A stretch of 64,000 bases of DNA from an uncultured Bacilli bacterium (GCA_944363525.1 CALVUF010000004.1:81139-145138), one strand, 5' to 3'. Shown: positions 4,576-62,119, counted from the first letter of the stretch. Numbers and translations: made by a program. Notes: generated by a model from the letters alone, not told the origin.

Positions 4576-6774
4576 TTAGGCTTCGGTCGAGGTCGACGGG
4601 GTGTCGTCCCCGGTGGTGCCGGAATCATCGCCAGTCGTCGGCATGGTCGACTTATAGGGGTTGGCCATGTAGGCTTTGGCATCTTCCGGAACGTTATCGA
4701 CGCCGACGTCGGTGTAACTGATGTGGATGTAATAGTTGGCGGTGGAGAAATTGAAGACGAGGTCCATGGTGAACTCATCCTCGGTCACCGTGAAGTAGCA
4801 ATCGCAGTAGTCATCGAGGTAGCCGGTCATGCCAAGGTAGTAAGCGGTCCAGAAGGCATAGGACTGGTTGACGTGGAAGAGCATAGTGTAGAAGACGCCG
4901 CTTAAGCCCATATCCACTCCACCTTGCATATAGGAGAAGTTCCGGTCCGGACCATAGGAGTTGAAGTAGTACTTGCCATCGCTAAGATCAGTGATAGAGG
5001 TCATCTCGAACAAGGTCTTTCCGCCGGTGGCTTCGGTGACGGATTTTGAATGACCGAAGGAAGCGGTCGGGACGAGGATCGAATCGGCCCAGATGTCTTT
5101 GATGGCGGCGTTGTCGGCATCCTGAACCGCGACGTTGAAGCCGTTGCCGGTTTCCGCATCATAGATACCGGTCGCTTCATGGAAGGCGCCATTGTAGATG
5201 AACTTCAGATCGGTGTGGTTGTTCTGAATATTGGCATCGCCCATGCTGAGCGAGGTGTCGCAATAGACGTTGTTGTTATTGAGGTTGCCATAACGGGCGT
5301 AGATGGCATTCTCGTTGGCATAGGTCAATACCGACATCGAGGAGAAGATATCCTGATGGGTATCGGAGAACTTCATGTTGTCCGGGGTCTCCACCTGCTT
5401 GCCGGTGTTGTCCTTCCAAGCGGCGTCCATTTTCATGGTGTAGGACTTCTTCTCGGCCATGTTGTCGAAGAAGGCGTCGAGTGGGGTGACCGGGATCGGA
5501 TCCGGGGTGGTCGGGGCTTTGACCCAGGCGTCGGCGGCCGCGAAGTTGGCGGTGCCGAAGTCGCTGACTTGGATAGAAGCTGGGAATTCCTCAACCTTTC
5601 CCGAGGTCGAGGGTAGTTCGAGGGTATCGATGTAATTGATGTCGTCCCCATCGATGATGGCCGGGTAGAAGGTGAGGAAGGAACTGCCATTGGATTCGCC
5701 AAGGTAGACCATGGCCCCGTTGATGGTAGCTCCGTAAAGTTCATCGCAATAGTAGACGATGTTGCTCCAAGCCTCCGGGGAGATAGAGTCGAGCATGGTG
5801 GTCAACGAGTTGGAACCATCTTCCTCAATGTAGTACATACCGGTCGCTTCGCCACGATAGGAGATTTCGTGGTAGCTCGAGGCCGGGACAGTGAAGGAAC
5901 CAAGCCCCTCGATTTCCTTGCTGGCCGCGTAGCCATGGCCGATTTCGAAAGTATCGGAATCGATGGTGAACCAGCTCGCGCCGGTGGCATCGGGGGCCGC
6001 TTCGACGGTGAAGTTCCGCCAAACGTCATTGGTGGTGTCATGGATCGACCCGCCTAAGGTATAGGTCTGGGTGGCCTCGTTGGTGGCGACGGGGTAATAG
6101 AAATAATCCTCAGTAGAAGCATAAACACCCGAGATGGCCGAATAGGAAATCCAGTTGTCCTTAATGGAGGAGTAGAACTGATTGAAGGCAACCTTATTCT
6201 CTGAAATGACGTAGCCGGTCAAAGCCCGGACGGTCTTCCCAGCGTGGAGGGTGACGGTGTATTCGCCCGCAGTTAAACCATAGAAGGTCTGGCCTTCGAT
6301 CTTGACGACGTCTGGGGTCGAGGTGGTGAGGTACCAAGAGCCGACGCCAGTCACTTCGACATAGTCGGCGACCCTGACGGCGTTGTCTTTGCCTGGGAGG
6401 ATCTCGACCGGGAGGGCGTCATAGTCAACGGTGACTTTGCCCGAAACTCCGGAATCAGGGTCGGCGATGGTGATGGTGTATTCTTCTTTGCTGGTGCCGT
6501 TAGAGACGGTGATGGTCACTTCGCCAGGGGCGAGGGGGGTGACGGTGCCGTCATTGGCGACTGCAGCGATGCTCTCATCGGAGACGGTCCAGGTCAATTC
6601 GCCGTCAAGCTTAGTCTCGATTTTGCCGGTTGCCCCGAGGTTAAGGGTGCCGCCATTAGCGATAATGACGATCGAACTGCTGGTTTCGCCCGGATTGTTG
6701 TCGCAGCTGGTGGCGAGCATCGGGGCGCCGAGAGCGAGGACCGCCGCTAAGCTGAGCAGGAGGTTCTTTTTCAT
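4576..6774 (-). CDS. surface lipoprotein with Ig-like repeats
   Basis: ORF 4576..6783. Second ATG (6774, MKKNLLLSLAAVLALGAPMLATSC) has better SD spacing (AGGAAAGGA-8nt-ATG). Lipobox LATSC. C-terminal TGDD repeats. Confidence 0.6.
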   Translation of the reverse strand: MKKNLLLSLAAVLALGAPMLATSCDNNPGETSSSIVIIANGGTLNLGATGKIETKLDGELTWTVSDESIAAVANDGTVTPLAPGEVTITVSNGTSKEEYTITIADPDSGVSGKVTVDYDALPVEILPGKDNAVRVADYVEVTGVGSWYLTTSTPDVVKIEGQTFYGLTAGEYTVTLHAGKTVRALTGYVISENKVAFNQFYSSIKDNWISYSAISGVYASTEDYFYYPVATNEATQTYTLGGSIHDTTNDVWRNFTVEAAPDATGASWFTIDSDTFEIGHGYAASKEIEGLGSFTVPASSYHEISYRGEATGMYYIEEDGSNSLTTMLDSISPEAWSNIVYYCDELYGATINGAMVYLGESNGSSFLTFYPAIIDGDDINYIDTLELPSTSGKVEEFPASIQVSDFGTANFAAADAWVKAPTTPDPIPVTPLDAFFDNMAEKKSYTMKMDAAWKDNTGKQVETPDNMKFSDTHQDIFSSMSVLTYANENAIYARYGNLNNNNVYCDTSLSMGDANIQNNHTDLKFIYNGAFHEATGIYDAETGNGFNVAVQDADNAAIKDIWADSILVPTASFGHSKSVTEATGGKTLFEMTSITDLSDGKYYFNSYGPDRNFSYMQGGVDMGLSGVFYTMLFHVNQSYAFWTAYYLGMTGYLDDYCDCYFTVTEDEFTMDLVFNFSTANYYIHISYTDVGVDNVPEDAKAYMANPYKSTMPTTGDDSGTTGDDTPSTSTEA

Positions 6775-6910
6775 AAATTTCATCCTTTCCTTTCGGCTAT
6801 TCGCTATGAATTAGCCGTGTCTTTTCATTCTTTGTCGAATGAACGCCCATATACCATACGTGGCAAATTATAAAAAGCAAGGATAAGTTGCTTTATTTTA
6901 AAAAATAAAA

Positions 6911-6933
6911 GAGCCGAGAGGTTATCTCGGCTC
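6911..6933 (-). terminator. terminator (bidirectional hairpin) downstream of protease lipoprotein gene
   Basis: GAGCCGAGA-GGTTA-TCTCGGCTC flanked by A/T runs on both sides. Confidence 0.55.
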
Positions 6934-6946
6934 AATTGATCTTGAC

Positions 6947-9025
6947 TTAGTCCTCGAAGGCGGGGTTGTAGGACGGGGTCTTGATGAAGTGGAGGGTGAT
7001 CTCCTCGTCGGTCTGATTCTCGACGTGGAAGGTCCAGTCGAAGCGGGACCCATCGTTCCAGAGGAGGTCATTGGGGTAGAAGGAACGCGAGTAGTAGTTG
7101 GAGTAGGTGTCGTTCCCATAGTAGCTTTCCTTCTTGGTGCCGGTGTCGTTTTTGGCTTTGAAGTCTTCGGAACCGAAGAGGTTAGTCATCAAGCCGAAGG
7201 AAGAATAATAGGAAGATCCGGAAGTGGAGTTGGTGGTGGTGGCGAAGACTGCTTGAAGCTCCCGGTTCTGGGTGGCGTTGCCGGCGGCGTCGGTCGAGCG
7301 GGACGGGGTGTTGTCGTGGACTCGACGGGCTTCCGATTCATAGGTGCCGGCGGTCCGGTCGGTTTTGTCGGCCGGCAACGGGTTATCGGTATATTCCGAG
7401 ACCAGGCTGCCGTTGTTGAGAGTCCCGTCTTCGTTTAGAGTTCCCTTATCGGAGGCGACCCGGGTATCGACGTGGAAGATCTGGAGACCCGGGTACTCAT
7501 AGGTCCCGCCATGGCCATAGGCGGCCGAGCCGGAGGCGCTGGTGGCGTTGCTCCATTCCGGATAGCCGTCGCTATCTTCCTCGTTTAGGCCGGTCGGAGT
7601 GTAGTATTGGAGCATCAAATACTCGTCATATGGGGTTTCGTTCCAGGGATCGCTGGTCGGTTTGACCAGGAGGAAGTCGCCGGTCTCGGTGAAGGACTTC
7701 AAGGTGATGGTGAAGTTGTCGCTCGAGCCATCGACGACCCGCGGGGCGACCCAGTTGTAGATCATCTTGGTGTAGGCGTTGTGGTCGCCGACGTTGTTGT
7801 CCATCATGTCGACTTGGCCCGCCGGGCCCTCGGTCCGGTCATATGAGTAGTAGTCGGGGGCGCCCATCATGTGCCCGGTTTCGTGGATAATGGTGTGGGC
7901 GTCGACCGATTTTCCTTCCCAGAGCTGCCCTTGGGCGTTTTCGCCGGTGGCGGCGGAATTGTAGTAGTTATTGGTTACGTAGTCGTAACGGGTCCAGAAG
8001 ATTCGGTGGACGTTCGGGGAGGCGGTGTTCGGGGACATCCTGGTGTTAGTGGTGAAGTTCCACCAGAGTCCGCTGCTGCCGGCGTCGGCGGTGCCGCTCA
8101 TGCCCGGGGTGGCGTTTTGGGTGGTGTAGACGACTTCGACGCCATCGATGTAGCCATCGCCGTCGAGGTCATAATCCTTGGGGTCGATTTTCCCGGTGCT
8201 GGTGAGCCAATTGACCGCTTCTTGGGCTATTTGGGTCGAGAAACCGGTATTCGAGCTCGAGATATTCTTGTCGTTATAAGGGGCGGTGTAGATGTCGGTG
8301 ACCTCACCGGTGATATTCAATTTTCCGTAACTCGATTTCTTGTAATAGGAAGCGAGCGATTCCCACGGGGTGCCGTCGGAATCGGCGAAGAAAGCCTCTT
8401 CGAGCATCGGCTTAACTTCATCGCGGATGTCAGCAGTGAATTTCTGACCATCCGCGAATTCGACCGGGATGACGAGGATCTTGACGTTCCCGTTGGCCGG
8501 CATGCCGCCGCCGCCGAGGGTCTCGATTTCATCGAAGTTCTGAATCTGATATTCGGCTAAATCGTTGGCCGTATAGCTTTTATAGCCCTTGCCTTCGGCC
8601 GCGGCCGCCGGGGTCTTGGCCTCGACGTTGAACTTGACGGTCCCGTAGGTATAGCCGCTTTGGGAGTAGCGGATCTCGCAGGTGTATTGGCCAGCCGGAA
8701 GCGAATCCGAGGCGGAGAACTCCTCGCCCGAGGTATCGTTGGTGATGGTGTAGGTGGTCCGGGCCGAATAGTTATAGACCTCGGTCTTGCTGCCGTCGGT
8801 TAAGTCCTCAAAGACGACGCTCGGCAAGCAGCCATCGAAGAAGGTCGAGCCTTCGGGGATGGTGGACGCGGCCAAAGTGATGTTCAGACGACGATCGCCT
8901 TCGGTCTCGCTACTGCTGGTGGTGGCATCGCCTTTGTTGCAGGCGGCGAGGCCAACGACGCTGAGCCCGAGCAGAGCCCAGCAGGTTACTTTAGTTTTAC
9001 TCATTTTCATATCCATGCCTCTCAT
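6947..9025 (-). CDS. M6 (immune inhibitor A-like) zinc metallopeptidase lipoprotein
   Basis: HETGHMMGAPD = HEXXHXXGXXD motif. Lipobox VVGLAAC. Likely start is the MKMSKTK Met at ~9010 (GAGG SD). 692 aa. Confidence 0.6.
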   Translation of the reverse strand: MRGMDMKMSKTKVTCWALLGLSVVGLAACNKGDATTSSSETEGDRRLNITLAASTIPEGSTFFDGCLPSVVFEDLTDGSKTEVYNYSARTTYTITNDTSGEEFSASDSLPAGQYTCEIRYSQSGYTYGTVKFNVEAKTPAAAAEGKGYKSYTANDLAEYQIQNFDEIETLGGGGMPANGNVKILVIPVEFADGQKFTADIRDEVKPMLEEAFFADSDGTPWESLASYYKKSSYGKLNITGEVTDIYTAPYNDKNISSSNTGFSTQIAQEAVNWLTSTGKIDPKDYDLDGDGYIDGVEVVYTTQNATPGMSGTADAGSSGLWWNFTTNTRMSPNTASPNVHRIFWTRYDYVTNNYYNSAATGENAQGQLWEGKSVDAHTIIHETGHMMGAPDYYSYDRTEGPAGQVDMMDNNVGDHNAYTKMIYNWVAPRVVDGSSDNFTITLKSFTETGDFLLVKPTSDPWNETPYDEYLMLQYYTPTGLNEEDSDGYPEWSNATSASGSAAYGHGGTYEYPGLQIFHVDTRVASDKGTLNEDGTLNNGSLVSEYTDNPLPADKTDRTAGTYESEARRVHDNTPSRSTDAAGNATQNRELQAVFATTTNSTSGSSYYSSFGLMTNLFGSEDFKAKNDTGTKKESYYGNDTYSNYYSRSFYPNDLLWNDGSRFDWTFHVENQTDEEITLHFIKTPSYNPAFED

Positions 9026-9772: not shown

Positions 9773-12424
9773 ATGAAAAAATCAGTGTTCTTGATCGCCC
9801 TTCTCGCTGCTAGCATGGGTTTGGCATCCTGCAATAAGGGTGAAAAATCCAGTTCGAGCGGGAATGGGGATTTCACGTTACCTGAAATCACCGGTTCTGC
9901 CCCTTATGATCCCGGCCCCGCCACCGAAGGCGCCGCCACTGGCAATTACGATTATTCCCAAGAGGATTATGAGACTCGGGCCGGTGCCCTTTATGCCCTC
10001 GAGAAGTATGCTTTGGACAACTTCACCGCCGGCATCCCCCTCTATGACGACGCTTCTTATGAGCAATTCTCCGCCCGTATCAAGCTGCCGTCTACCACCT
10101 ACTTAACCAACTACGGCTTCGGCACTGCTTATGGCACCATCGACCCCGATGGCGTCATGTACAACGCGACCATCAACGAGTCGGTCGACGCCTGGAAGAG
10201 CTATTTCCACGGCTATACCACCGTCGACTCCAACACCTTCAACGGCTGGGACTCCAACGGCTCCGACGTCTCCGACCGGATGTCGATGATCGCCTCCGGC
10301 TACTTCGGCGTCCAGGCCAACGCCTCCAACACCGATTACTCCTGGGTCGGCTCCCTCTCGACCACCGACGCCCCCATCATGATCACCGGGCTCAAAGGGT
10401 CGGAAGTCCAAAACCCGGCTGAGGACCAAACCAGCCAGTTCTGGCGGGTCAAGGTCCACTTCGGCGAAGGCTACACCTACCGGACCGCCGACACCTCAAA
10501 ATGGAAATCCAAATACAACGGCCGCCAGGTCGCCCTCGAGGACTACCTGACCCCGTTCAAGGCCATGCTCAACGGCCGGTTGCTCCGCTACGCCGACATG
10601 GTCTCCGACGCCTCGGGCTTCCAGGGCGCCATGGAATACGTCTACAACTCCGAACTCCAGAGCGGGGCTTGGGAGGACAGCGGAGTCGGCATCCAGATCA
10701 ATGAGAAGGAAGGCGCCATCGACTTCGCCTTCATCCAGCCGCAGTCCTCGGCCTATGCCCGGACCGCCCTCTCCTCGATGTTCTATTCCCCGGTCCCCGA
10801 GGAATTCATCACCGATATCGGAGGCGGCAACTTCGCCACCGGCGCCAAGAGGTACGGCATCCGGTCGAGCACCGATAAATACAACTGCTTCGACAACATC
10901 CTCGTCTTCGGCCCCTATATCCCCGAATACTGGGAAGACCAGGTCCGGATCGTCTATAAGGCCAACGACACCTACTTCGAGAAGGATCTCTATCACTACG
11001 ACGGCTACACCGAGGACATCTTCACCGGCTCCGACGCCGACACCCTCGCCTACAACGCCTTCTTGAACAACCAGCTCGACGAGGTCTCGATCCCGGTCGA
11101 CGAGCTGACCGCTCACCGGAACGACAAGAACGTCCTCCGGACCGAAGGCTCGACCATCATCAAACTCAACATCAACTCGACCACCAACGAGCAGTGGGAG
11201 GCCTTCTTCGGCGAATCCGGCTCGGTCACGACCACCGCGAAGAACAACTATTGGGACGTCAAGCCCATCATGAGCAACCAGTATTTCCTCGAAGGGTTCT
11301 ACTATGCGATGAACCGTCAGGAACTGGCTGACCTCGCCGGTAAGAACCCGGCGGTCGGCTACCTCTCCAAAGCCTATATGATCGACCCGGCCGGCAAAGA
11401 GTCCTACCGCGATTCAATCTATGGCAAATCCGCCGTTTGGTACCGGCAGCAAACCGCCGGCAATGAGCAGGCCTATTCCCGCTCGATCGCCGAAGCTTAC
11501 TTCGACGCCGCCGGCACCCAACTACTGGCCGAAGGCAGCTACCGGAACGGCGACACCATCGAGATCACCGGCTACTTCCGTTACCAGACCACCATCGACA
11601 ACCTCGGCTCCTACATCAGGTCATATCTCCAGGATGCCTGGAACGCCGTCAACGTCAATAAAAATGGCAAAAACTTGGCCCTTAAGGTCAACCTCCTCGT
11701 CGGCGGCACGACCTACAACGACACCTATACCCGGATGGACGAAGGCCAATTCGACTTCGCCGAAGGGGCGATCTCGGGCAATGTCTTGAACCCGCTCGAC
11801 TTCATGAACACCTGTTCCTCGACCGTCGCCCTCAACCAAGGCTTCAACCTGAACTGGGGCGATCCGACCAATGAAGTCAACGCGACCAAGCCGGTCGTCT
11901 TCGACGGCAAGATCTGGTCCTACGATGCCCTTTGGTCCGCCACCCAAGGTTGGACCATGGTCAACGAAGGCGTCACCTCGCCGGTCGCCGATAACCAGAC
12001 GATGTCGCTTGATTCGGCCAACAACCGGATCCACTGGCAGGCGACCTTCCCGGCCACTGCGACCGATGATCTAGGCAATTCGATCCTCGACTTCGAAATT
12101 CGTGACCTCGCCATCATGGGCGGCTCGACCGCGACTCCGACCAGTGGCTACTACCTCAATGACAAGTCGGCTTATTCGATCGAAACCGACCGCAACGGTT
12201 ACATCAACGTCTACGTCGATCTCGATGAGGTTAAGAGTTTGATCAACCAGTTACGAGCAAATGGGAACGTCAATTACTTCTCGCTCTACTTCTCCCTCGT
12301 CTACACCGTTGACCTCTCGAAGGTTACCTCCGATAACCTCGATGGGCAGACCGGGTCTAACTCCAAAATCACCAAATCGGTCCTCGTCGACTCGGTCGGC
12401 CGGTGCTCCGATTACGGCATCTAA
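9773..12424 (+). CDS. oligopeptide ABC transporter substrate-binding lipoprotein (Mollicutes-type large OppA-like)
   Basis: MKKSVFLIALLAASMGLASC lipobox. 883 aa. Immediately upstream of oppBCDF. GGAAGG SD. Confidence 0.6.
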   Translation: MKKSVFLIALLAASMGLASCNKGEKSSSSGNGDFTLPEITGSAPYDPGPATEGAATGNYDYSQEDYETRAGALYALEKYALDNFTAGIPLYDDASYEQFSARIKLPSTTYLTNYGFGTAYGTIDPDGVMYNATINESVDAWKSYFHGYTTVDSNTFNGWDSNGSDVSDRMSMIASGYFGVQANASNTDYSWVGSLSTTDAPIMITGLKGSEVQNPAEDQTSQFWRVKVHFGEGYTYRTADTSKWKSKYNGRQVALEDYLTPFKAMLNGRLLRYADMVSDASGFQGAMEYVYNSELQSGAWEDSGVGIQINEKEGAIDFAFIQPQSSAYARTALSSMFYSPVPEEFITDIGGGNFATGAKRYGIRSSTDKYNCFDNILVFGPYIPEYWEDQVRIVYKANDTYFEKDLYHYDGYTEDIFTGSDADTLAYNAFLNNQLDEVSIPVDELTAHRNDKNVLRTEGSTIIKLNINSTTNEQWEAFFGESGSVTTTAKNNYWDVKPIMSNQYFLEGFYYAMNRQELADLAGKNPAVGYLSKAYMIDPAGKESYRDSIYGKSAVWYRQQTAGNEQAYSRSIAEAYFDAAGTQLLAEGSYRNGDTIEITGYFRYQTTIDNLGSYIRSYLQDAWNAVNVNKNGKNLALKVNLLVGGTTYNDTYTRMDEGQFDFAEGAISGNVLNPLDFMNTCSSTVALNQGFNLNWGDPTNEVNATKPVVFDGKIWSYDALWSATQGWTMVNEGVTSPVADNQTMSLDSANNRIHWQATFPATATDDLGNSILDFEIRDLAIMGGSTATPTSGYYLNDKSAYSIETDRNGYINVYVDLDEVKSLINQLRANGNVNYFSLYFSLVYTVDLSKVTSDNLDGQTGSNSKITKSVLVDSVGRCSDYGI

Positions 12425-13626: not shown

Positions 13627-15816
13627 ATGGAAAACGAAAAGAAAAATACCGATTTCGAATCGGCACAAGACTTCGAGTTCGTCCAGCAAGACGCCTCGAT
13701 TCACGATCAAAAGTTTGAGACCAAGCCGACCACCTATTTCAAAGACGCGATGAAGCGGTTCGTCAAGAACCGTTCCTCGGTCGTGGCCGGCTGCATTCTC
13801 TTCGTCCTTATCGCCATGGCTATCATCGTCCCGGTGGCCAATAAAAACGACATCGACAACCCGGTCGCGGCGGCCCGTTATCTGCCCCCGAAGTGGTTTG
13901 ATGGCGATACCGGTGGCTTCATGGACGGGACTGGTTACGTTGAGAAAGCCATCCTTGATCCCAGCACCAATAATTTGCCGTCTGGCTCGTTCTATAAATC
14001 CTATGCTGTCATCGGCGACATCGAATCGACCCAATCGTATTCTGATACTTGGGACGAATCGGTCCGGAATTACGGCAAGAATGGGGCAATCCGGCTTGGC
14101 AACGGCTCCAGCGAGAACGAAGTCGGTATCTTCGAGTCGGAAGAATCTGGCCTTCTTTCCCCGGTTGTCCAGTTGGCTTTAGCCGACTCTTCGGTCAGTT
14201 ATGAAGTAACCTTCTATCCCGAATCCTATGCCGACAATCATGTCGAAGGGACGGAGATCGCCTCCTATATCGGCTGGGTTTTCGAAGCTTCTGAGGAGAC
14301 TCCGGACGAAACCGAGGCTTTAGCCGAGGAATCGACCGATACTCCGAGCGAAGACACCCCAGAGGAAGGCGGGGAGGAAATCCCCGAAGATCCCGCGGAA
14401 GAGCTGACCATCGTTCCATTGATGGACCCCCTATCCTTAACCGATGAAACCACCTCGATGGAAGTCGAGAATGTCGTCGGTATCCTCCAAGAAGGCGGCT
14501 ATCTCGATGGGGCGTCCGAACAGGTTTCCGGCCGGTTCGCCATCGTCTACGATGCTCCCGTCGATGCGGCGGCTTCGGCCAATTCGCTTTATATCCAGTC
14601 AGTTCAGGCGAGGGGGACTACCTCTAGTGTTGGCGCCGCTTCCTTCTCCAACGCCACCCAAGCTTATGCTTCTCTAAATGCTGGTGGCTATTCCCGCTTA
14701 AACGAGATCTCCTCGACCGGCATATACCATTCTGAGGTTACCTATGGTGCTTTCCGTTATGACTATTACGAAGCGGCCTTCGGTGACGTAGCGGGGCAAG
14801 AGTTTACTAAAAACGACATCGATACTTATGTTAGCCATGGCTGGATTGAATCCCTTTCCTGCAGGGGTAGGGTCGGCGGGGAAATCGCCCTCTTTAGCCT
14901 CTCAAACGGCGACACCGCCATCGATTGGAGCAAAGCTCCGATGACTTCCACCTCGGTCACTTTGGTTTTGACTGCGGAAGGCGATACCTATTGCCCATTA
15001 CGGTCGATTCAGACTTTACGGGCGATCAATTTGGGCGGTGATGTCGGAACCTCGGTTTCCGTCTATGGGACCCAATCCCTTTACCGTCTGCTTTATGAGC
15101 AGGATAAGATCGGCTCCTGTAAGATGCCGAAATACTTCTTCGGGACCGATCGGAACGGGAAAGACTTCTTCAAGTTGGTCTTTTCCGGCTTACTTACTTC
15201 CCTTGGCTTAGGGTTATTGAGCTCGGCCATCAACATCGTCATCGGGCTTATCTGGGGTGCCATCTCCGGTTACTTTGGCGGCTGGGTTGATATGCTGATG
15301 GAGCGGTTCTGCGAGATCCTCGGCGGTATGCCATTCATCGTCATGATGACCCTGATCGTCTTGCTGCTAGGATCGAACTTCTGGACCTTCCTCTTGGCCC
15401 TTTGCCTTACTGGCTGGATGGGGGTCGCGGCCGAGACCAGGCGACAGTTCTATCGCTATAAACGAAGGGAATATGTCTTGGCCTCAAGGACTTTAGGCGC
15501 GAGCGACACCCGGCTTATCTTCAAGCACATCCTGCCCAACGGCATCGGTCCGATCATCACCGGCGCCATCCTCATGATCCCCTCGGTCATCTTCACCGAA
15601 GCCAATATCTCCTACTTATTGCCTTCGGCCTTGGCCTTCTCGGGATCGCAATCGTTCGGTATCACCTTGTCTAATGTCCAAGGCGACTTGCAGAACTACC
15701 CCTACCTAATCGTCAGTGCCTCCATCGTCATGGCTTTGATCATGATTTGTTTCAACCTGTTCGGCAATGGCTTGCGCGACGCCTTCAACCCGGCTTTGAA
15801 AGGAGCGGATGAGTGA
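13627..15816 (+). CDS. oppC: oligopeptide ABC transporter permease OppC with ~430-aa extracytoplasmic insertion
   Basis: C-terminal RTLGASDTRLIFKHILPNGIGPIITG permease signature. 729 aa, versus ~300 aa for a usual OppC. Confidence 0.85.
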   Translation: MENEKKNTDFESAQDFEFVQQDASIHDQKFETKPTTYFKDAMKRFVKNRSSVVAGCILFVLIAMAIIVPVANKNDIDNPVAAARYLPPKWFDGDTGGFMDGTGYVEKAILDPSTNNLPSGSFYKSYAVIGDIESTQSYSDTWDESVRNYGKNGAIRLGNGSSENEVGIFESEESGLLSPVVQLALADSSVSYEVTFYPESYADNHVEGTEIASYIGWVFEASEETPDETEALAEESTDTPSEDTPEEGGEEIPEDPAEELTIVPLMDPLSLTDETTSMEVENVVGILQEGGYLDGASEQVSGRFAIVYDAPVDAAASANSLYIQSVQARGTTSSVGAASFSNATQAYASLNAGGYSRLNEISSTGIYHSEVTYGAFRYDYYEAAFGDVAGQEFTKNDIDTYVSHGWIESLSCRGRVGGEIALFSLSNGDTAIDWSKAPMTSTSVTLVLTAEGDTYCPLRSIQTLRAINLGGDVGTSVSVYGTQSLYRLLYEQDKIGSCKMPKYFFGTDRNGKDFFKLVFSGLLTSLGLGLLSSAINIVIGLIWGAISGYFGGWVDMLMERFCEILGGMPFIVMMTLIVLLLGSNFWTFLLALCLTGWMGVAAETRRQFYRYKRREYVLASRTLGASDTRLIFKHILPNGIGPIITGAILMIPSVIFTEANISYLLPSALAFSGSQSFGITLSNVQGDLQNYPYLIVSASIVMALIMICFNLFGNGLRDAFNPALKGADE

Positions 15817-17741
15817 TTATGAACAAATACAAAACCATCGATTACCCCGCTTCGGTCGGGGAGCAGGAAAAGGGCAAGGAACCGGTCCTTTCGGTCCGGA
15901 ACCTCGCCATCTCCTTCAAAACCGACGAGGGGATGGTCAAAGCCGTCCGCGGCGTCTCCTTTGACTTATACAAAGAGGAGACCCTTTGCATCGTCGGCGA
16001 ATCCGGCTCCGGCAAATCGGTCACCAATAAGACCATCATGGGCATCCTCCCCAAAAGTGCCCGCATCGAATCGGGCTCGATCGTTTATGAAGGCGAGGAT
16101 TTGACCCAAGTCTCCGAGGATGAGTTCCATAATATTCGCGGCACCAAGATCGGCATGATCTTCCAAGACCCCTTATCGTCTTTGAACCCGATCATGCGGA
16201 TCGGTAAGCAGATCACCGAGGTCATGCTCATCAATGGGCATCACCTGAAGAATCTTTTCAAGGACATCGTCAACGACTCCTTCATCAAGTTGAAAAACGA
16301 TGAACGGCTTCTTCAATTAGCCGAAAGCGACCTGAAGCACGCCTTAGCCGATATCAAAGCCGCGATCGCCAAGGAGAAAGCAGACGCCAAAGTCGAGGAA
16401 CGGACTCCGAACCTCGAGCCGTTAATGGCCAAGCAATCCGATGCCAAGGCCGTCTTCCAAGCCAAGAAAGCCGATCTAAAGGCCATCATCGCGGAAGACA
16501 GAGCCGCCTATTCGGCGAAAAAGAAGGAGGCAAAGCAGGCGGTGCGCGAGAAGCGCTCGGCCTTGCGGAAAGAGCATTGGGAAAAGCTCCGCCCGATCTA
16601 TAAGTCCTTCTTCGATAAGACCCCGTCGAACGAAGCCAAGGCCAAGATCGCCGAGGCGAAGAAGAAATACGAGGCGGCCATGGCCTTGCCGGAGAACAAT
16701 CCGAGCGAGGACGAATTGATCGACCTCTATGCCTCGATTGTCAACCCGAAGGAGAAGGCGGTCGCCGAGTTAAAGCAGAAGTTGGAATCGCTTTCTTCGA
16801 ACAAGAACACCGATCAGGGTTTAGTTGCCTATAACGAATGCCGGTTGGCGCTTCGTGATGCCAAAAAAGCGGCCGCTTTGGCGAAGAAAGAAGCCAAGAA
16901 AGCGGTCCATGAGAAGAAATACGGGGCTCGCGATGCCTACCTGGCTGAAGTCCGTCCCCTTTATAAGGCTTTGTTGACCTTCCCGGCCTTCAAGAAAGCC
17001 TATGACGGCTTCCTTATTGAGCATCGTCGTTACCTTTCTTGCCTCCGGGTTACCCATAAGGAAGCCAAGGAACGAGCCCTCAAGATCATGGCCGAAGTCG
17101 GCATCCCTCAACCGGAACGCCGGTTCTACCAATATCCCTTTGAGTTCTCCGGCGGCATGCGGCAACGGATCGTCATCGCCATCGCCTTGACCGCCCATCC
17201 GGATATCCTGATCTGCGATGAGCCGACAACCGCCCTCGACGTCACCATCCAGGCCCAGATCCTTGAGCTTATCAATGAATTGAAGGCCAAGCACCATATG
17301 TCGGTCATCTTCATTACCCACGACCTTGGGGTCGTGGCTAATATGGCCGATCGGGTCGCGGTTATGTATGCTGGCAAGATCGTCGAATATGGGAAAGCCG
17401 ACGAAGTGTTCTATTCGCCCGCCCACCCCTATACCTGGGCTTTGCTTTCCTCCATCCCCGACGTCGATTCGAAGGAGAAGCTCGAAGCGATCCCCGGCAC
17501 CCCGCCGAATATGCTCTTCCCGCCGAAAGGCGACGCCTTTGCGGCAAGAAGCAAATACGCCCTCGGCATCGACTTCAAGGAAGAGCCGCCGATGTTCGAA
17601 CTTTCGCCCACCCATTACGCCGCCACTTGGCTATTGGATGAACGGGCCCCGGAATACAAGATGCCCTCGATCGTCGCCACCCGAATCAAGAACTCCTTGA
17701 AACGGGCCAAGAAGCAAACCGGAGGTAAGAAAGATGAATGA
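15813..17741 (+). CDS. oppD: oligopeptide ABC transporter ATP-binding protein OppD with ~290-aa K/A/E-rich insertion
   Basis: Walker A GESGSGKS, signature FSGGMRQR, Walker B ILICDEPTTALDV. Coiled-coil insert lies between Walker A and the signature. Confidence 0.85.
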   Translation: MIMNKYKTIDYPASVGEQEKGKEPVLSVRNLAISFKTDEGMVKAVRGVSFDLYKEETLCIVGESGSGKSVTNKTIMGILPKSARIESGSIVYEGEDLTQVSEDEFHNIRGTKIGMIFQDPLSSLNPIMRIGKQITEVMLINGHHLKNLFKDIVNDSFIKLKNDERLLQLAESDLKHALADIKAAIAKEKADAKVEERTPNLEPLMAKQSDAKAVFQAKKADLKAIIAEDRAAYSAKKKEAKQAVREKRSALRKEHWEKLRPIYKSFFDKTPSNEAKAKIAEAKKKYEAAMALPENNPSEDELIDLYASIVNPKEKAVAELKQKLESLSSNKNTDQGLVAYNECRLALRDAKKAAALAKKEAKKAVHEKKYGARDAYLAEVRPLYKALLTFPAFKKAYDGFLIEHRRYLSCLRVTHKEAKERALKIMAEVGIPQPERRFYQYPFEFSGGMRQRIVIAIALTAHPDILICDEPTTALDVTIQAQILELINELKAKHHMSVIFITHDLGVVANMADRVAVMYAGKIVEYGKADEVFYSPAHPYTWALLSSIPDVDSKEKLEAIPGTPPNMLFPPKGDAFAARSKYALGIDFKEEPPMFELSPTHYAATWLLDERAPEYKMPSIVATRIKNSLKRAKKQTGGKKDE

Positions 17742-55999: not shown

Positions 56000-57022
56000 A
56001 TGGGAGTTTCGCATTCGATTGAAGACTATCTCCATAGTCCCGCGCTTGAGCCTTTGCTTGTTAACGGGGATGCCTTTGAGCTTTTGCCATTGATTCCCTC
56101 GGCTTCCATCGATTTGATTTTGACCTAGCCCCCTTATTTCCAGAAACGCGATTATCCGTCTTCTTTGCTTGGCAACGAATCTAACTACCAGGATTATCTT
56201 GATGCCTTGATGACTTTGTTTAAGGAAGTGTATCGGGTCTTAACGCCGAGCGGCTCCTTTTGGCTGAGTCTTGGCGATTCCTATATCGACAAGCATCTGG
56301 GGCTTCTTCCTTATCGATTGGCTATCCAGCTTGTAGATGAAGTGTGGTTCGTGCTGCGAAACCAAATCATCTGGAACAAGATGAAAGGAGCGCCCTCAAG
56401 CATCCATGACCGGTTCCGTAATTGCTACGAGCCGTTCTTTTTCTTCACTAAGTCGGCCTCCAGTTATTACTTCAATGAATCGGCGGTCCGGTTAGAGGCG
56501 GGCAAGTCCCATCTTGGGAAGCGGGGCGCCGTCGTTACCTCCAGCGGCGTCTCCGGCATTTCCTATCGCCGGAAGGTCAAACGCTCCAGCCATTTAAGCC
56601 CGGAGGAGAAGAAACGGGCTCTTACGGAGTTGAAGGCGGTTTTAAAGGAAGTGGAAGACGGTTTGATCCCCGATTTCCGGATGGTGATCCGCGGGGAGAA
56701 CCGGGTGACGAACGGGGATTCGACCCGGCTTTCGGGTCGGGCGGTTGAACTGCAGGAAAAAGGATTCTACTTCCTTAAGTACAGCCGAGACGGGTCTTTG
56801 CTTGGCGATGTCTGGGATATCGTTGATTCTCGAAAGATTGGTTCTTCCCATTACGCGACATTCCCTTCCGATTTGGTTCGACTTCCTATTAAGGCGTGCT
56901 GCCCCGAGAAGGGCATCGTCCTCGATCCGTTCGTCGGGACTGGGACCACTTGTTTAGTCGCCGCCTCCGAAGGAAGAAAAAGCATCGGCATTGAGATCAA
57001 TCAAGACTATCTGCCTTCTTAA
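56000..57022 (+). pseudogene. DNA N4/N6-methyltransferase (N6_N4_Mtase-type) interrupted by in-frame TAG at the (S/D)PPY motif
   Basis: ATG 56000 with AGAGGT SD. ...SIDLILT-[TAG 56126-56128]-PPYFQKRDYPSSLLGNES... continues in the same frame as track ORF 56165..57022 (whose 'M' is the first TTG after the stop). C-terminal AdoMet motif LDPFVGTGTT. Confidence 0.6.
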
Positions 57023-57040
57023 CAATGGAACCTTCGATTT

Positions 57041-57925
57041 ATGAAACGATATCCAATCGATGAATCATTAGGGAAACTCGCCAACTTCCTTCCGCCCTTC
57101 AATCGCTTCGTGGCGACGATGGGGAAAATCTTCATGCCTAACGTCCCCTTCTATTTGAAACGAGCTACTGTCCACTTTCGGAGTATCCGTTTTAAAGGTC
57201 AAAATCCCTTTAACGTCTATGTGGTCTATCCAAGCGGAGATACCGACCAGCCGCGTGCTTGTTATCTTTATCTTCATGGCGGGGGCTTCGCTTATAAAGC
57301 CAATGGGTCGCAGATTGCTCAGTTTTTAACGACCATAAAAGAACTGAATATCGTTGGGATCCTCATCGATTATTCGGTGTTAAAGCCGTATTCAATCCCC
57401 AATCAGCAGATCGTCAAGGCGTTTGACTATCTCTACGAAAACGCCGATTTGCTTCATATCGATAAAGAGCACATCGCTGTCGGGGGCGATTCGGCCGGCG
57501 GTTATTTGGCGGCTGACTTAACTAGACTTCGTTGGGATCAAATTAAGGCGATGGTCCTTTGTTTCCCGGTGCTTGATCCTTCGCTTTCGACTGAATCGAT
57601 GAAAACCTTTCTCGACACCCCGTTATGGAATGGAAAAAACAACAAGAAGATGTGGGGGATGTATGGGCAGGGCAACCCAGACCTGACTAATTTCCTTAAT
57701 CTTGTGGACTATTCTCGTTTTCCTCCTGCCTACATCGAGGCCTGCGAATTCGATTGCTTACGTGACGAAGCCATTGTTTTTAAGGATAAGTTGATTAGGG
57801 CTGGATGCTCAGTTGCCTATCGGTTCATTGAAGGGGCAATGCATGGTTATGACACGATGAAATGCTCTCCTTTGACGAAAAAGAGCATTGAAGCAAGAAT
57901 CGAGTTTCTTCGAAGCGGTCTCTAA
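57041..57925 (+). CDS. alpha/beta hydrolase, hormone-sensitive-lipase-family esterase/lipase
   Basis: HGGGF oxyanion-hole motif (YLYLHGGGFAY). GDSAGG nucleophile elbow. 294 aa. Confidence 0.7.
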   Translation: MKRYPIDESLGKLANFLPPFNRFVATMGKIFMPNVPFYLKRATVHFRSIRFKGQNPFNVYVVYPSGDTDQPRACYLYLHGGGFAYKANGSQIAQFLTTIKELNIVGILIDYSVLKPYSIPNQQIVKAFDYLYENADLLHIDKEHIAVGGDSAGGYLAADLTRLRWDQIKAMVLCFPVLDPSLSTESMKTFLDTPLWNGKNNKKMWGMYGQGNPDLTNFLNLVDYSRFPPAYIEACEFDCLRDEAIVFKDKLIRAGCSVAYRFIEGAMHGYDTMKCSPLTKKSIEARIEFLRSGL

Positions 57926-57947
57926 TAGATAAGAGCCTGTCGGAATA

Positions 57948-58559
57948 TTACTTAATCAAATCCTCGATGGCGCAGCCTAAGCATTCACTAAGCCAATAAA
58001 GGGTTTCGGCTTGGGCTTTGGCGATATCGACCGATCCTTGTTCATAGGCTCTGATACTTCGCAAGGGAATCCCAGAAATGTTGGCTAATTGGCTTTGGCT
58101 ATACCCTTGTTTTTCCCGAATTTTCTTTAAAGGGCAGATCGGTTGGAGATATTCCGCGATAAGGTCCATTGTTTGGCGGATATCCATCTCGTGGTAGGGG
58201 AAGTAGTAATTCAGCAGATGGCTGGGTTTGATGGCTTTGATGAGGTCCGCATATGTCCTATTAAAATGCCATTGGGCATAGGCCAAAACCCATCCGACCC
58301 AGAATTCCGGGGTGGGGATATCGGTCGCTTCAATATTATGTGGCTCTTTGCCTAAGACAAGGTATAAAAGCTCGATGGAGGATTTCCCTAAGGCCAGGAT
58401 ACAATCGGCGGTCTCTAAACTCCGAGCGACTTCCGATTTGGCGAATTTATCGGCAAAGTCATCAATGTCGAGCGCTTCCTTCAAAACGGCGAACTCGAAC
58501 ATGTAGGCGACTTTGGGCTGGATGACTCCAAGCCATTGCTCATTGTAGGCGTGGATCAT
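57948..58559 (-). CDS. XRE-family HTH protein (C-terminal HTH) fused to conserved N-terminal domain of unknown function
   Basis: C-terminal KIREKQGYSQSQLANISGIPLRSIRAYEQG is an HTH_XRE. Overlaps the upstream gene's stop by 20 nt. Confidence 0.5.
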   Translation of the reverse strand: MIHAYNEQWLGVIQPKVAYMFEFAVLKEALDIDDFADKFAKSEVARSLETADCILALGKSSIELLYLVLGKEPHNIEATDIPTPEFWVGWVLAYAQWHFNRTYADLIKAIKPSHLLNYYFPYHEMDIRQTMDLIAEYLQPICPLKKIREKQGYSQSQLANISGIPLRSIRAYEQGSVDIAKAQAETLYWLSECLGCAIEDLIK

Positions 58560-59220
58560 CGGGCTTGATTCCTCCGCGAATGATATCGGTCAGATATAGG
58601 GCATCAGGTTCGATTGGCCCGTTTCGGCTGCTTAAGAATTCGGCGCGGGCATCTTGATTTCTTTTCTGTCGTAACGGGAAGTAGATTGCCGAATCGGCGA
58701 TTTCATAACCTAAGAAGCGAAGTTGGTTAAAAGCTTTTGGGGATTTCAAAACAATCTGCTCCCCGAGATTGCCGAGTCTCAAGGCGGCCGAAAGTCGTTG
58801 CACTGTTAAGGCGTTGTTAAGGAAGTTCGCGGCATAAAGGAAGTAGCAATCATCAGCACGATAGCCTTTGATGACGTCATAATCTTCGATGGGCAATGCA
58901 AAATGATCGATTAGATATTGTTTTCCCTCCTTGGCTACCTCGTTAGCTGTATTGAAGATCCGATTTTGGACTAAGACCGCAATCCAATGCAAAGTAGCGA
59001 AGCCTTTGCCCGAGAGGTCGAGGATCCGTAGGCCCGATAAATCCAGGGCATATTTATTGGCATACCCATCTTGGTTTTCCTTGACTGCCCATTCTTTGGC
59101 CAAATTCAAACTTTCCGTGCAGTAAAAACCCAGGCCATAATCGTTATAATGCTTGCCTTTTCCGTAGATTGGTTTTTCGACTATGGAAACTGAACCATGG
59201 TATAGGGCTAATTGACTCAT
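58540..59220 (-). CDS. conserved hypothetical protein (DUF3990-like by recollection; unverified)
   Basis: 226 aa. N-terminal LYHGSVSIVEKPIYGKGKHYNDYGLGFYCTESLNLAKEWA. First gene of a two-gene minus-strand pair. Confidence 0.4.
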   Translation of the reverse strand: MSQLALYHGSVSIVEKPIYGKGKHYNDYGLGFYCTESLNLAKEWAVKENQDGYANKYALDLSGLRILDLSGKGFATLHWIAVLVQNRIFNTANEVAKEGKQYLIDHFALPIEDYDVIKGYRADDCYFLYAANFLNNALTVQRLSAALRLGNLGEQIVLKSPKAFNQLRFLGYEIADSAIYFPLRQKRNQDARAEFLSSRNGPIEPDALYLTDIIRGGIKPDDPRLQ

Positions 59221-59400: not shown

Positions 59401-60408
59401 TTATTGGCCTTGGAGATTATTGGTGATTAAAGATTGGTAGGCCTTCTTGTAGTAGGTGATCAAGCGCTGTCGGAGTCTTTCGGGTTTGATTACCTGGCAC
59501 TCCGCCCCGAAGCGGCGGAAGTATTGCTCTAACTGGTCAAGGGAACAACGGAAGAAATAATGGTTGTCTTCGATCCGTTCGACCTTTGGCCGATAGACAT
59601 AAAGCTTCTTAAAGAGACTCTGGCCTTTCTCAGTCAAGACGATTTCGGTCTCAAAGGGATGACGGGAATAGGAATACTGGGGACCATACTCAGCTAACCG
59701 GCGGAAGACGTCTTGGTCTACCTCATCGAAAACGGCTGGGCTATCCAATTCAATGATGTCCTTGATCTTCGATAACCGGAAGCTTCGGCAGTCACAGCCT
59801 TCTTTATAAAGGAGGTAGTTGTAGGTCTCTTCGGCGACGACCGCGAAGCCATAGGGCGATATAGGTTTTCTTTGCCCGGCGTTATTCGCCGTATAGACGT
59901 AAACCTGCTTCTTGTCCTCAATGGCCTTGCTGGCTTTCTTATAGACGTCTTTGAAGACGATGGCCTCCCGGCGGAATTGGGGCAAGGAGCCATAGGCGAA
60001 GAGCATCCGGCGGAAGTAATCGGATAAGGTCGAGCCCTTTAACAGGTTCGATTCGATGTGACTGATGATGTAGATGCTTTCTTTGGTCGGACGGAAAGAT
60101 AAGGAAGCGGAGTAGTTGGCTTTCTTGACGTAGCCTTTGTAGCCTTCGGCGATGATGGAATCGATGAAGAGGGAACTATCCTTTTCGCTCAAGGATGATT
60201 TTTTGGCTAGGGCTAATAGATGGGCTCGCTCTTCGGCCTCTTTTTGCCGGAAGGCGTCGAAATAGGCGACGAGCAGAGCATTGACGAATCCACTGCGGTT
60301 GACCGACTTGTCCTTCTTGAAGAAATCGAAGCTTTCGGCGTCCCGGTCGATTAATTCCAGAAGGTTTTGCGGCAAAGCGATTTTTATTTTTTCGTAATTA
60401 TCCTGCAT
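59401..60408 (-). CDS. WYL-domain transcriptional regulator (WYL + C-terminal WCX-like)
   Basis: Start at MQDNYEKIKI (GGGGGT SD). WYL-like VYVYTANNAGQRKPISPYGFAVVAEETYNYLLY...FRLSKIKDI. C-terminal FRCSLDQLEQYFRRFGAECQVIKPERLRQ. Confidence 0.45.
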   Translation of the reverse strand: MQDNYEKIKIALPQNLLELIDRDAESFDFFKKDKSVNRSGFVNALLVAYFDAFRQKEAEERAHLLALAKKSSLSEKDSSLFIDSIIAEGYKGYVKKANYSASLSFRPTKESIYIISHIESNLLKGSTLSDYFRRMLFAYGSLPQFRREAIVFKDVYKKASKAIEDKKQVYVYTANNAGQRKPISPYGFAVVAEETYNYLLYKEGCDCRSFRLSKIKDIIELDSPAVFDEVDQDVFRRLAEYGPQYSYSRHPFETEIVLTEKGQSLFKKLYVYRPKVERIEDNHYFFRCSLDQLEQYFRRFGAECQVIKPERLRQRLITYYKKAYQSLITNNLQGQ

Positions 60409-60688
60409 GTTTACCCCCTTTCCGTGGTCAAGAAACATATCAGAAACGTTTAAAGATACGATAAAACCTTTATTGAATGGGTTCAAGAAATACTTATACT
60501 CTGTCAATTTTCATAACTTTCTAGAACCTTACAATATGACCATGCACCGACAGCAACCAATGATTTTCCAAAGGATGCATTAATCTTAGGTGCCGCGAAA
60601 GCGTTAAAGGCGTGGACCGCAACAAAATTATCTTTTTTGGGAAAAGTAACGCGCCTTGTCTCAAGTAATCCTAAAGGAGGGACTGAAC

Positions 60689-62119
60689 ATGAACGACAAC
60701 TACATCCGCTTCTTAGCCCAGACTGAGAACGGCGATGCCGCCTATTACTCTTCGGGCGACTATTTGGTTGACCTCCTTTCGCTTATCGGAGCGAGCCGGT
60801 CGAACCCGAGCCAATGTCTGCCTTTGTTCAAGAAGGCTTGGACGCTCGATAAAGAACGGGCCCTTTCCTTGCTCCTATACGCCCGGGATATCCGGGGCGG
60901 ATTAGGGGAACGGGAGGTGTTCCGGACCCTTTACCGGGATTTAGCTACCGATAATCCCGAGGTCGCCATCAAATTGATCCCCTTAGTCATTGAGTTTGGC
61001 CGGTATGACGATCTCTTTGCCCTTATCGGCACCAAAGCCGAGCCCAAACTCATGGAATTGATCAAAAAGACCCTCGACGAGGACTTGGCTTCGAGTGATG
61101 GCTCGGTCAGCCTGCTTTCGAAATGGATGCCTTCCATCAACGCCTCCAATCCCAAGACCATCAATCTGGCCCGTCATTTGGCCAAGGCCTTGGGCTTAAG
61201 TAACGCTGAGTATCGGAAGACCCTTTCTAAACTCCGGAAAGGCCGGATCGTCGAGAACAACCTCCGGACTATGGACTATTCCTTCGCTTACCAAAGCGTC
61301 CCGGCCCAGGCTTTCCATAAATACCGGTCGGCTTTCGAACGGAATGATGGTGAACGCTACCGCGACTTCATCGATAAGGCCATGAAAGGGGAGGCCAAGA
61401 TCCGGACCGAAGGGCTTTACCCTTACCAAATCGTCCCCAATTACTTTGAATTCAATCGGCTTAACGACTTGGAGAAGGCGGCCATGGAAAGCAAATGGCA
61501 GGCGATGAAAGCGGGCCTCCCCGATTTAAGCGGGACCATCGTCGTCCGCGACGGCTCGGGTTCGATGATGGCGGACAACGGGTTCCCCGACCGGGTCGCC
61601 ACCAGTTTGGCCATCCTCTTCTCCGAATACTTGAAAGGCCCCTTTAAGGACAGCTTCATCACCTTCTCGAGCCATCCCGAGATCGTCCGCTTCCAAGAGG
61701 GGATGAGCCTCTATGACAAGTTGAAGGAAATCCATCGCTACAACGATGTCTCCAACACCGATATCCTCAAGGTCTATCGGCTGATTCTGGAATTGGAGAC
61801 GTTTGCCGCGCCGATCAAACGGGTCCTCCTCATCTCCGACATGGAGTTCGACCAAGGGACGGAGAACGTCCCGACCTACGAGACCTTCAAGTCGATGTTC
61901 GAGGAAAAAGGTTTGCCCTTTCCGCAGGTGATCTACCTCAACGTCAATTCTCATGGCATCCGCTTCAGCACCCGCAAACAAGACAACGTCTTGCTGCTTT
62001 CGGGAGCCAGCCGGAACCTGGTGAGTTTATTGGCCGAAGCCGGTGAACTTGATTGCCGATCCTTGCTCGATATGGCCATCGCCCCTTATCGCGACTTGGT
62101 CCGGGATATTCTCGCCTAA
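60689..62119 (+). CDS. vWA-domain protein with N-terminal helical domain (DUF2828-like; RGGxGER motif)
   Basis: AAAGGAGGG SD. ARDIRGGLGEREVF motif. C-terminal vWA with MIDAS DGSGS (VVRDGSGSMM). Confidence 0.5.
   Translation: MNDNYIRFLAQTENGDAAYYSSGDYLVDLLSLIGASRSNPSQCLPLFKKAWTLDKERALSLLLYARDIRGGLGEREVFRTLYRDLATDNPEVAIKLIPLVIEFGRYDDLFALIGTKAEPKLMELIKKTLDEDLASSDGSVSLLSKWMPSINASNPKTINLARHLAKALGLSNAEYRKTLSKLRKGRIVENNLRTMDYSFAYQSVPAQAFHKYRSAFERNDGERYRDFIDKAMKGEAKIRTEGLYPYQIVPNYFEFNRLNDLEKAAMESKWQAMKAGLPDLSGTIVVRDGSGSMMADNGFPDRVATSLAILFSEYLKGPFKDSFITFSSHPEIVRFQEGMSLYDKLKEIHRYNDVSNTDILKVYRLILELETFAAPIKRVLLISDMEFDQGTENVPTYETFKSMFEEKGLPFPQVIYLNVNSHGIRFSTRKQDNVLLLSGASRNLVSLLAEAGELDCRSLLDMAIAPYRDLVRDILA

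Follow-up and report, generated by a model that had tools for sequence, protein, structure and literature searches.

The window, a stretch of 64,000 nt from an uncultured Bacilli bacterium, carries on its + strand a pseudogene of a beta-class (SPPY) N4/N6 DNA methyltransferase with one in-frame stop codon (56000–57022), recognised by translation, by its PF01555 match and by comparison with orthologues. The reading frame opens at ATG 56000, and a putative Shine-Dalgarno-like sequence, AGAGG (55991–55995, +), can be read 4 nt ahead of it. The frame encodes MGVSHSIEDYLHSPALEPLLVNGDAFELLPLIPSASIDLILT (42 sense codons), is interrupted by TAG at 56126–56128 and continues with PPYFQKRDYP..., with no second stop before the TAA at 57020–57022, giving 340 codons in total. 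The PPY that follows the stop (56129–56137, +) is the remainder of catalytic motif IV, and the C-terminal end carries LDPFVGTGTT (56921–56950), in which DPFVGTGTT (56924–56950, +) is the AdoMet-binding motif I (FxGxG). The ORF list splits the gene into 56000–56128 (42 aa) and 56165–57022 (285 aa, TTG start); the longest residual ORF with an ATG start (56210–57022, +) has 270 aa, begins MTLFKEV, does not include motif IV and is identical to the database protein P0121. Translation thus agrees with the initial annotation, which had described a methyltransferase frame broken by an in-frame TAG and continuing into the ORF at 56165–57022 with its LDPFVGTGTT motif.

For the comparisons with Pfam and with solved structures, a 340-residue conceptual protein was used, with Ser placed at the stop. 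It matches PF01555 (N6_N4_Mtase) over residues 37–338 (E = 1.4e-46; 159.7 bits against a cutoff of 26.7), as do the orthologues, and its motif order is that of the beta class: (S)PPY at codons 43–46, then the recognition domain, then FVGTG at codons 311–315. A functional member of PF01555 requires an intact motif IV and an open frame, and here TAG replaces Ser43. The best matches among solved structures are TTHA0409 of Thermus thermophilus, a putative modification methylase (2ZIE, E = 2.6e-22; also 2ZIF and 2ZIG), and M.PvuII, an N4-cytosine enzyme of the beta class (1BOO, E = 4.5e-17); other N4C enzymes are also among the matches. In both proteins motif IV (TSPPY/TSPPF) and motif I (FxGxG) align with the window protein, but the likeness to 1BOO and 2ZIE is confined to two conserved lobes, and the middle ~130 residues of the window protein (~139–269) have no counterpart. 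SPPY or SPPF instead of DPPY is the usual sequence correlate of N4-cytosine methylation, and from the SPPY motif and the best structural matches N4-cytosine specificity appears likely.

Two tRNA genes predicted by ARAGORN lie upstream. The first, tRNA-Asn(GTT) (55652–55726, +), is conserved in a sister species (contig L040), and the 3′ CCA end of the second, tRNA-Glu(TTC) (55734–55810, +), is the left edge of a variable locus, similarity to contigs L101 and L099/L100 stopping at 55810–55812. A terminator-like hairpin and T-run, an 11-pair stem then TTTTTGTTAT, follows tRNA-Glu (55822–55856, +; consensus scan). It was the only element to stand out in a promoter and terminator scan of 55600–58100, where promoter-like sites were no commoner than in shuffled sequences. 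In L040 a 25 nt deletion lies inside tRNA-Glu(TTC) (~9780–9830, alignment columns 102–126, opposite window 55741–55765); ARAGORN finds only tRNA-Asn at this tRNA pair in L040. The L040 tRNA-Glu is either a dead copy or an assembly fault.

The gene immediately downstream of the methylase, 18 bp after its stop codon, encodes an alpha/beta-hydrolase (esterase; 57041–57925, +; Abhydrolase_3, PF07859, E = 4.7e-31), and it occupies the slot taken by a restriction endonuclease (REase) in homologous loci. It is followed on the − strand (57948–59220) by a gene for an HTH_3 protein (57948–58559, 203 aa) and an overlapping gene for a DUF3990 protein (58540–59220, 226 aa), both assigned by Pfam. The two match the PADLOC models PDC-M42B (2.2e-7) and PDC-M42A (1.5e-39), respectively, and represent a candidate defence pair; in L040 the DUF3990 gene is interrupted by a stop codon at position 142. 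Adjoining this pair, a gene for a WYL/WCX-like protein (59401–60507, −) makes up the remainder of the island together with a DUF2828 protein gene (60656–62119, +). The region from 55811 to ~62070 is missing in L099/L100, and the comparison with L101 and L099/L100 identifies it as a variable island at tRNA-Glu. Between 55640 and 62400, no second, directly oriented copy of the tRNA-Glu 3′ end, as would mark an integrated element, came to light; the only repeats are short ones at chance level. Elsewhere in the window (13627–17741), genes for an OppC-like permease (729 aa) and an OppD-like ATPase (642 aa), both much longer than usual, best match the Mycoplasma-type models MMSYN1_0166 and MMSYN1_0167, which fits a Mollicutes-related Bacilli host. 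For pyrG, the best named matches are Bacillota/Bacilli MAGs and Candidatus Enteromonas (72%); together with the transporter genes they suggest a gut lineage of uncultured Bacilli with Mollicutes affinity.

Database searches recovered full-length orthologues of 340 aa (P0001, P0124 and P0126), each with 97% identity to the window methylase, and further strain variants were collected through a 90% protein cluster and exact-protein look-ups. The contig that encodes P0001 (L001) aligns with window 55712–57161 at ~98% nucleotide identity, shares the upstream tRNA-Glu and the start of the downstream esterase gene, and has TCG in place of TAG. The same Ser codon is found at codon 43 in L089–L093, L096 and L084–L088, which like L001 are of the same species (~98% identity, same neighbourhood), and the sister species L040 has TCT (Ser). 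Since strains of the same species read TCG, the lesion at 56126–56128 (+) is a single C-to-A transversion at 56127. TCG is exactly the Ser codon that the initial annotation had placed one substitution away, and the comparison of orthologous loci that it had proposed gave TCG within the species and TCT in L040. In an alignment of methylase homologues (48–56% identity), S43, P44, P45 and Y46 are invariant in 119 of 119 sequences; the slot it had described as Ser or Asp of SPPY/DPPY is therefore Ser throughout.

A single-base difference adjoining a C5 run might be suspected of being a sequencing or assembly error, the more so as on the opposite strand the altered base follows GGC, a context that is error-prone for short reads. 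The same TAG, however, is present on 11 contigs, eight of them for P0121 (the 270 aa product from ATG 56210, which is what gene callers report in public assemblies) and three for a close variant, P0125. The listed contigs come from at least four samples (ERZ24773501, ERZ28613882, ERZ28614482 and ERR4096580) and differ in assembly style (SPAdes-style NODE contigs, ONAT22 scaffolds, Logan). The codon always occurs on one haplotype, where it is fully linked with six other haplotype-specific substitutions, and is absent from all other haplotypes. When metagenome contigs were scanned for the exact sequence surrounding the stop, the variable base being set to N, there were 0 matches. Given the haplotype linkage across multiple samples, assembly error was rejected as an explanation, and the chance that the codon is artefactual is negligible.

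Readthrough or recoding of the TAG, by a suppressor tRNA, pyrrolysine or near-cognate decoding, would allow a full-length active enzyme to be made, and had been offered as an alternative in the initial annotation. Such a reading would suit a frame that is otherwise intact and holds a single stop at a defined position, and a suppressor tRNA or pyl cluster could lie outside the 64 kb window. It is opposed by the orthologues, which carry Ser codons (TCG/TCT) and do not conserve TAG, and by near-cognate decoding, whose product would have Gln, Tyr, Lys or Trp where 119 of 119 homologues have Ser. The relaxed constraint seen on the TAG haplotype (below) also argues against it. In the window both TGA and TAG serve as stops; of 42 long ORFs, 4 terminate in TAG, one of them pyrG (533 aa; homologues 531–548 aa), and none of the 7 tRNAs found by ARAGORN has a CUA anticodon. 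Stop codon usage and the length of pyrG led to the rejection of TAG reassignment, and production of a full-length enzyme by any of these routes is extremely improbable.

A Type II restriction-modification (R-M) system has an REase gene next to the methylase gene, and no such gene is found in the window. When 63 REases of the family were used as tblastn queries, the window, L040 and L089 gave no similarity better than E = 0.18, in keeping with the initial annotation, which had noted an esterase and no cognate endonuclease beside the methylase. At 58 of the 79 loci of methylase homologues (45–53% identity), an ORF of ~282 aa follows immediately in the same orientation. It matches the Pfam family NotI (PF12183, 30.2 bits against a cutoff of 22) and, in PADLOC, a model for Type II REases (E = 8.8e-16); a representative of these NotI-like REases had no sequence match among solved structures, and a literature search on the base modified by NotI-type systems gave nothing usable. 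Methylases with an adjoining NotI-family REase are also present in L099, L100, L101, L103 and L104. P0002 and P0003 (55–57% aa identity), the two nearest homologues from beyond the species, are encoded at the same chromosomal site, with a NotI-family REase gene after each. The earlier suggestion of an R-M remnant is supported by the downstream REase genes of the homologous loci and by those at the same site in relatives.

One of these contigs, L101 (ena:ERZ24773551 BRZ_SM NODE_112), belongs to the same species, its left flank being 97.7% identical to window 49952–55810. Exactly at the tRNA-Glu CCA end it switches to a 2.1 kb methylase-REase cassette (5860–7984, opposite window 55811–57040) with a GC content of 0.375, in which the methylase shows 57% aa identity and is overlapped by 14 nt by the gene for a NotI-family REase of 289 aa. 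Similarity resumes at the esterase ATG (57040). The right flank is more divergent (esterase 86%, remainder 92.8%), which suggests that the segment was imported. L099/L100 represent a more distant relative (flank 86.5%), in which the methylase and REase genes are followed directly by the gene found after window 62070. The methylase cassette of the window has a GC content of 0.50, near the window average of 0.53. The methylase-esterase junction of the window is present in the sister species L040, where the orthologue is likewise kept at a locus without an REase, and the REase was thus lost, or was never brought in, before the two species split.

Complete operons of this family are exemplified by those of plasmid pBspH9 of Acinetobacter sp. 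NEB 394 and of an IncFII plasmid of Klebsiella pneumoniae, where NCBI annotates a 'NotI family restriction endonuclease' beside an SPPY methylase. Their methylases (46% aa identity), like P0002 and P0003, are homologous to the window protein over its full length and share its motif order and size, but in the window there is no REase gene and the methylase has a stop in its catalytic motif. CcrM (6PBD), which belongs to the beta class and to this Pfam family (E = 3.4e-13), also works without an REase; it differs in having DPPY, in methylating adenine and in being essential or strongly conserved. Conserved regulatory orphans such as CcrM and Dam contrast in this respect with the window gene, which is broken in most of the lineages sampled.

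If the methylase had been retained for its function after the loss of a partner, then its coding sequence might be expected to show purifying selection. Pairwise dN/dS values (Nei-Gojobori) between the window species and its sister are 0.12 for the methylase, at a dS of 0.94–0.98, and lie within the range of the flanking genes (0.04–0.20). Within the species (window versus L089) the methylase value is 0.53, compared with ~0.17 for fifteen neighbouring genes pooled, a difference resting on few substitutions (Fisher P = 0.03, or 0.055 when one outlier gene is left out). The shift from 0.12 to 0.53 indicates that the methylase was preserved through most of the period since the two species separated, and that constraint was lost recently. 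A separate irregularity was seen at 50922–51947, where an ORF of 341 aa upstream of a T2SSE-type ATPase gene has a dS of 0.32 against L089 (neighbours ~0.01–0.07) and compensating 1 nt indels near nt 886–896; it looks locally recombined or hypervariable.

The TAG haplotype itself shows the same relaxation. Private to it are five missense changes (S56L, K82T, R110Q, G116W and G155S) and one synonymous change. K82T (ACG, Thr82; 56243–56245, +) affects a Lys that is invariant in 119 of 119 homologues. The probability of at least five non-synonymous changes among six is 0.008 at an omega of 0.12 and 0.57 at an omega of 1. The initial annotation had called the gene freshly inactivated; this is roughly right, in that constraint was lost recently and the order of magnitude is correct, but the distance from the event is not zero, the haplotype having acquired the five private missense changes afterwards unless it had them before.

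The window and nineteen related contigs resolve into nine distinct methylase alleles. TAG at codon 43 is shared by the window, L082 and L083, which are identical, and by L094 and L095, identical to each other, which add S323F and Q335P. Full-length alleles are found in L089–L093, L001 and L096; all have L215S and A286G and the majority G58D as well, three changes at positions invariant in 119 of 119 homologues. Nonsense or frameshift lesions affect the methylase in most of the sampled lineages. Five contigs (L084–L088) share a frameshift at codon 86, where T4 has become T5. L098 has a 2 nt deletion within codon 43 (ACCT--CCCCC), and L097 has TCG CCC changed to CCG ACC (S43P/P44T, giving PTPY for SPPY) together with a 1 nt deletion at codon 153; both are single short contigs (1.1 and 2.7 kb, respectively). 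The sister species contig L040 (CASFTG010000001.1), with the same gene order and ~80% nucleotide identity in the methylase, has a 1 nt deletion near codon 190.

A strain-specific ON/OFF switch had been considered as a further alternative in the initial annotation. The difference between strains exists, but the lesions are irreversible and polymorphic, which does not describe a switch. The TAG site has no repeat tract: the neighbouring run is no longer than C5, and the site lies outside all repeat families. The change there is a base substitution; the gene therefore does not qualify as a phase-variable methyltransferase (phasevarion).

Three lesions in three haplotypes (TAG, L098 and L097) fall within the 6 nt TCGCCC at 56126–56131, the codons of Ser43 and Pro44. 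With the events evenly spread, the probability that at least two of the five others would fall in these 6 nt is 3.4e-4, or 0.015 when L098 alone, in codon 43, is counted, and all six methylase lesions are within the first 56% of the gene. Clustering of this kind counts against simple neutral decay, which does not predict it. Several independent hits on the catalytic codon would be accounted for if loss of the methylase was selected, its catalysis having become harmful (through acquisition of a methylation-dependent restriction system, or through costly off-target methylation) so that repeated knock-outs were favoured. Against this, the L097 and L098 lesions adjoin GGC/C5 on single short contigs, where sequencing or assembly errors are plausible, and selection of this kind would not specifically predict the catalytic codon since any loss-of-function mutation would serve. 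Moreover, no methyl-dependent nuclease was identified in the 64 kb window, and the damaging-looking changes in the full-length alleles fit plain relaxed constraint. Selected loss is accordingly considered unlikely.

Local causes of the clustering were also sought. The predicted DNA fold of 56090–56165 is no better than that of shuffled sequences (z = 0.46), giving no hairpin cause for the codon 43 lesions, and no nearby donor copy was found for the L097 variant, for which 12 matches at up to 2 mismatches are within the range of shuffles. That the Ser43 and Pro44 codons are a recurrent target, either of selection against the catalysis of the orphan or of a local mutational hotspot, and not of random decay, is doubtful; if true, the clustering on the catalytic codon would point to selection against the activity of the orphan.

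The part of the gene downstream of the stop might itself be expressed, from TTG 56165 (285 aa) or ATG 56210 (270 aa), and serve a non-catalytic role such as sequence-specific DNA binding or AdoMet binding. The frame stays open for 285 codons past the stop, P0121 is called in public assemblies, and in the beta class motif IV precedes both the target-recognition domain and motif I, which would be retained. Yet a single recent nonsense mutation would leave the rest of the frame open in any case, and the part supposed to be functional has been altered at conserved positions (K82T, G116W and G155S), has S323F and Q335P in addition in L094/L095, and is broken in other strains at codons 86, 153 and 190. 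No good ribosome-binding site or promoter was seen for the internal starts, the scan giving no more sites than shuffled sequences do. A role for the residual ORF is very unlikely, though less so than readthrough of the stop.

The esterase gene also varies among strains. It is intact (294 aa) in all strains with the TAG allele, and has a 1 nt deletion at nt 241 in every strain with a full-length methylase (L089 11042–11925, L090–L093 and L096), where its products are of 221 aa, or of 95 and 182 aa. In the strains with the +T frameshift only an esterase product of 223 aa was called. The states of methylase and esterase are thus anti-correlated, in a small sample. An esterase that is intact in the TAG strains and frameshifted alongside a full-length methylase counts against the decay reading.

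Taken together, the window methylase is most probably a solitary enzyme left over from a Type II R-M system and undergoing ordinary gene decay. Members of its family are normally paired, in Type II operons of two genes, with a NotI-family endonuclease encoded directly downstream, and in this lineage the endonuclease gene would already have been absent before the window species and its sister separated. The methylase would then have been kept alone for a long period under purifying selection; that constraint has probably since been lost, with decay in parallel in separate lineages. In the window strain the C-to-A change at 56127 (TCG to TAG) would end translation after 42 residues, just ahead of PPY, and a product restarted at TTG 56165 or ATG 56210, being without motif IV, would be unable to methylate. 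We infer that methylase activity was lost through the TAG at catalytic Ser43, and the loss appears to have been neutral, not selected.

It is well known that R-M systems can first lose the REase and that the unpartnered methylase then decays. Solitary methyltransferases of this origin are on record for Helicobacter pylori and Mollicutes, as are R-M genes inactivated in particular strains; a study of Metamycoplasma hominis (PMC10305163) belongs to the same topic. The window methylase is an undescribed instance of this course. Like known orphans derived from R-M systems, the window gene is a methylase without a partner, has intact and broken alleles among strains and is situated in a variable region beside a tRNA gene. 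It differs from them in the purifying selection across a species split (0.12 at a dS of ~0.95) that preceded decay, and in the presence, at the same site in a strain of the same species, of a different and complete R-M cassette.

For annotation, 56000–56128 and 56165/56210–57022 are best merged into one feature marked as a disrupted methyltransferase gene, to which no methylation motif should be assigned. The case is mildly interesting for the long retention of the orphan and for its parallel decay alongside a fresh replacement within the species: at this tRNA-Glu site one strain appears to have acquired a low-GC methylase-REase cassette belonging to the same family. It provides an example of the probable afterlife of an R-M system in uncultured gut Bacilli, in which the REase would have gone first, the orphan methylase would have been retained, and parallel decay would have followed.
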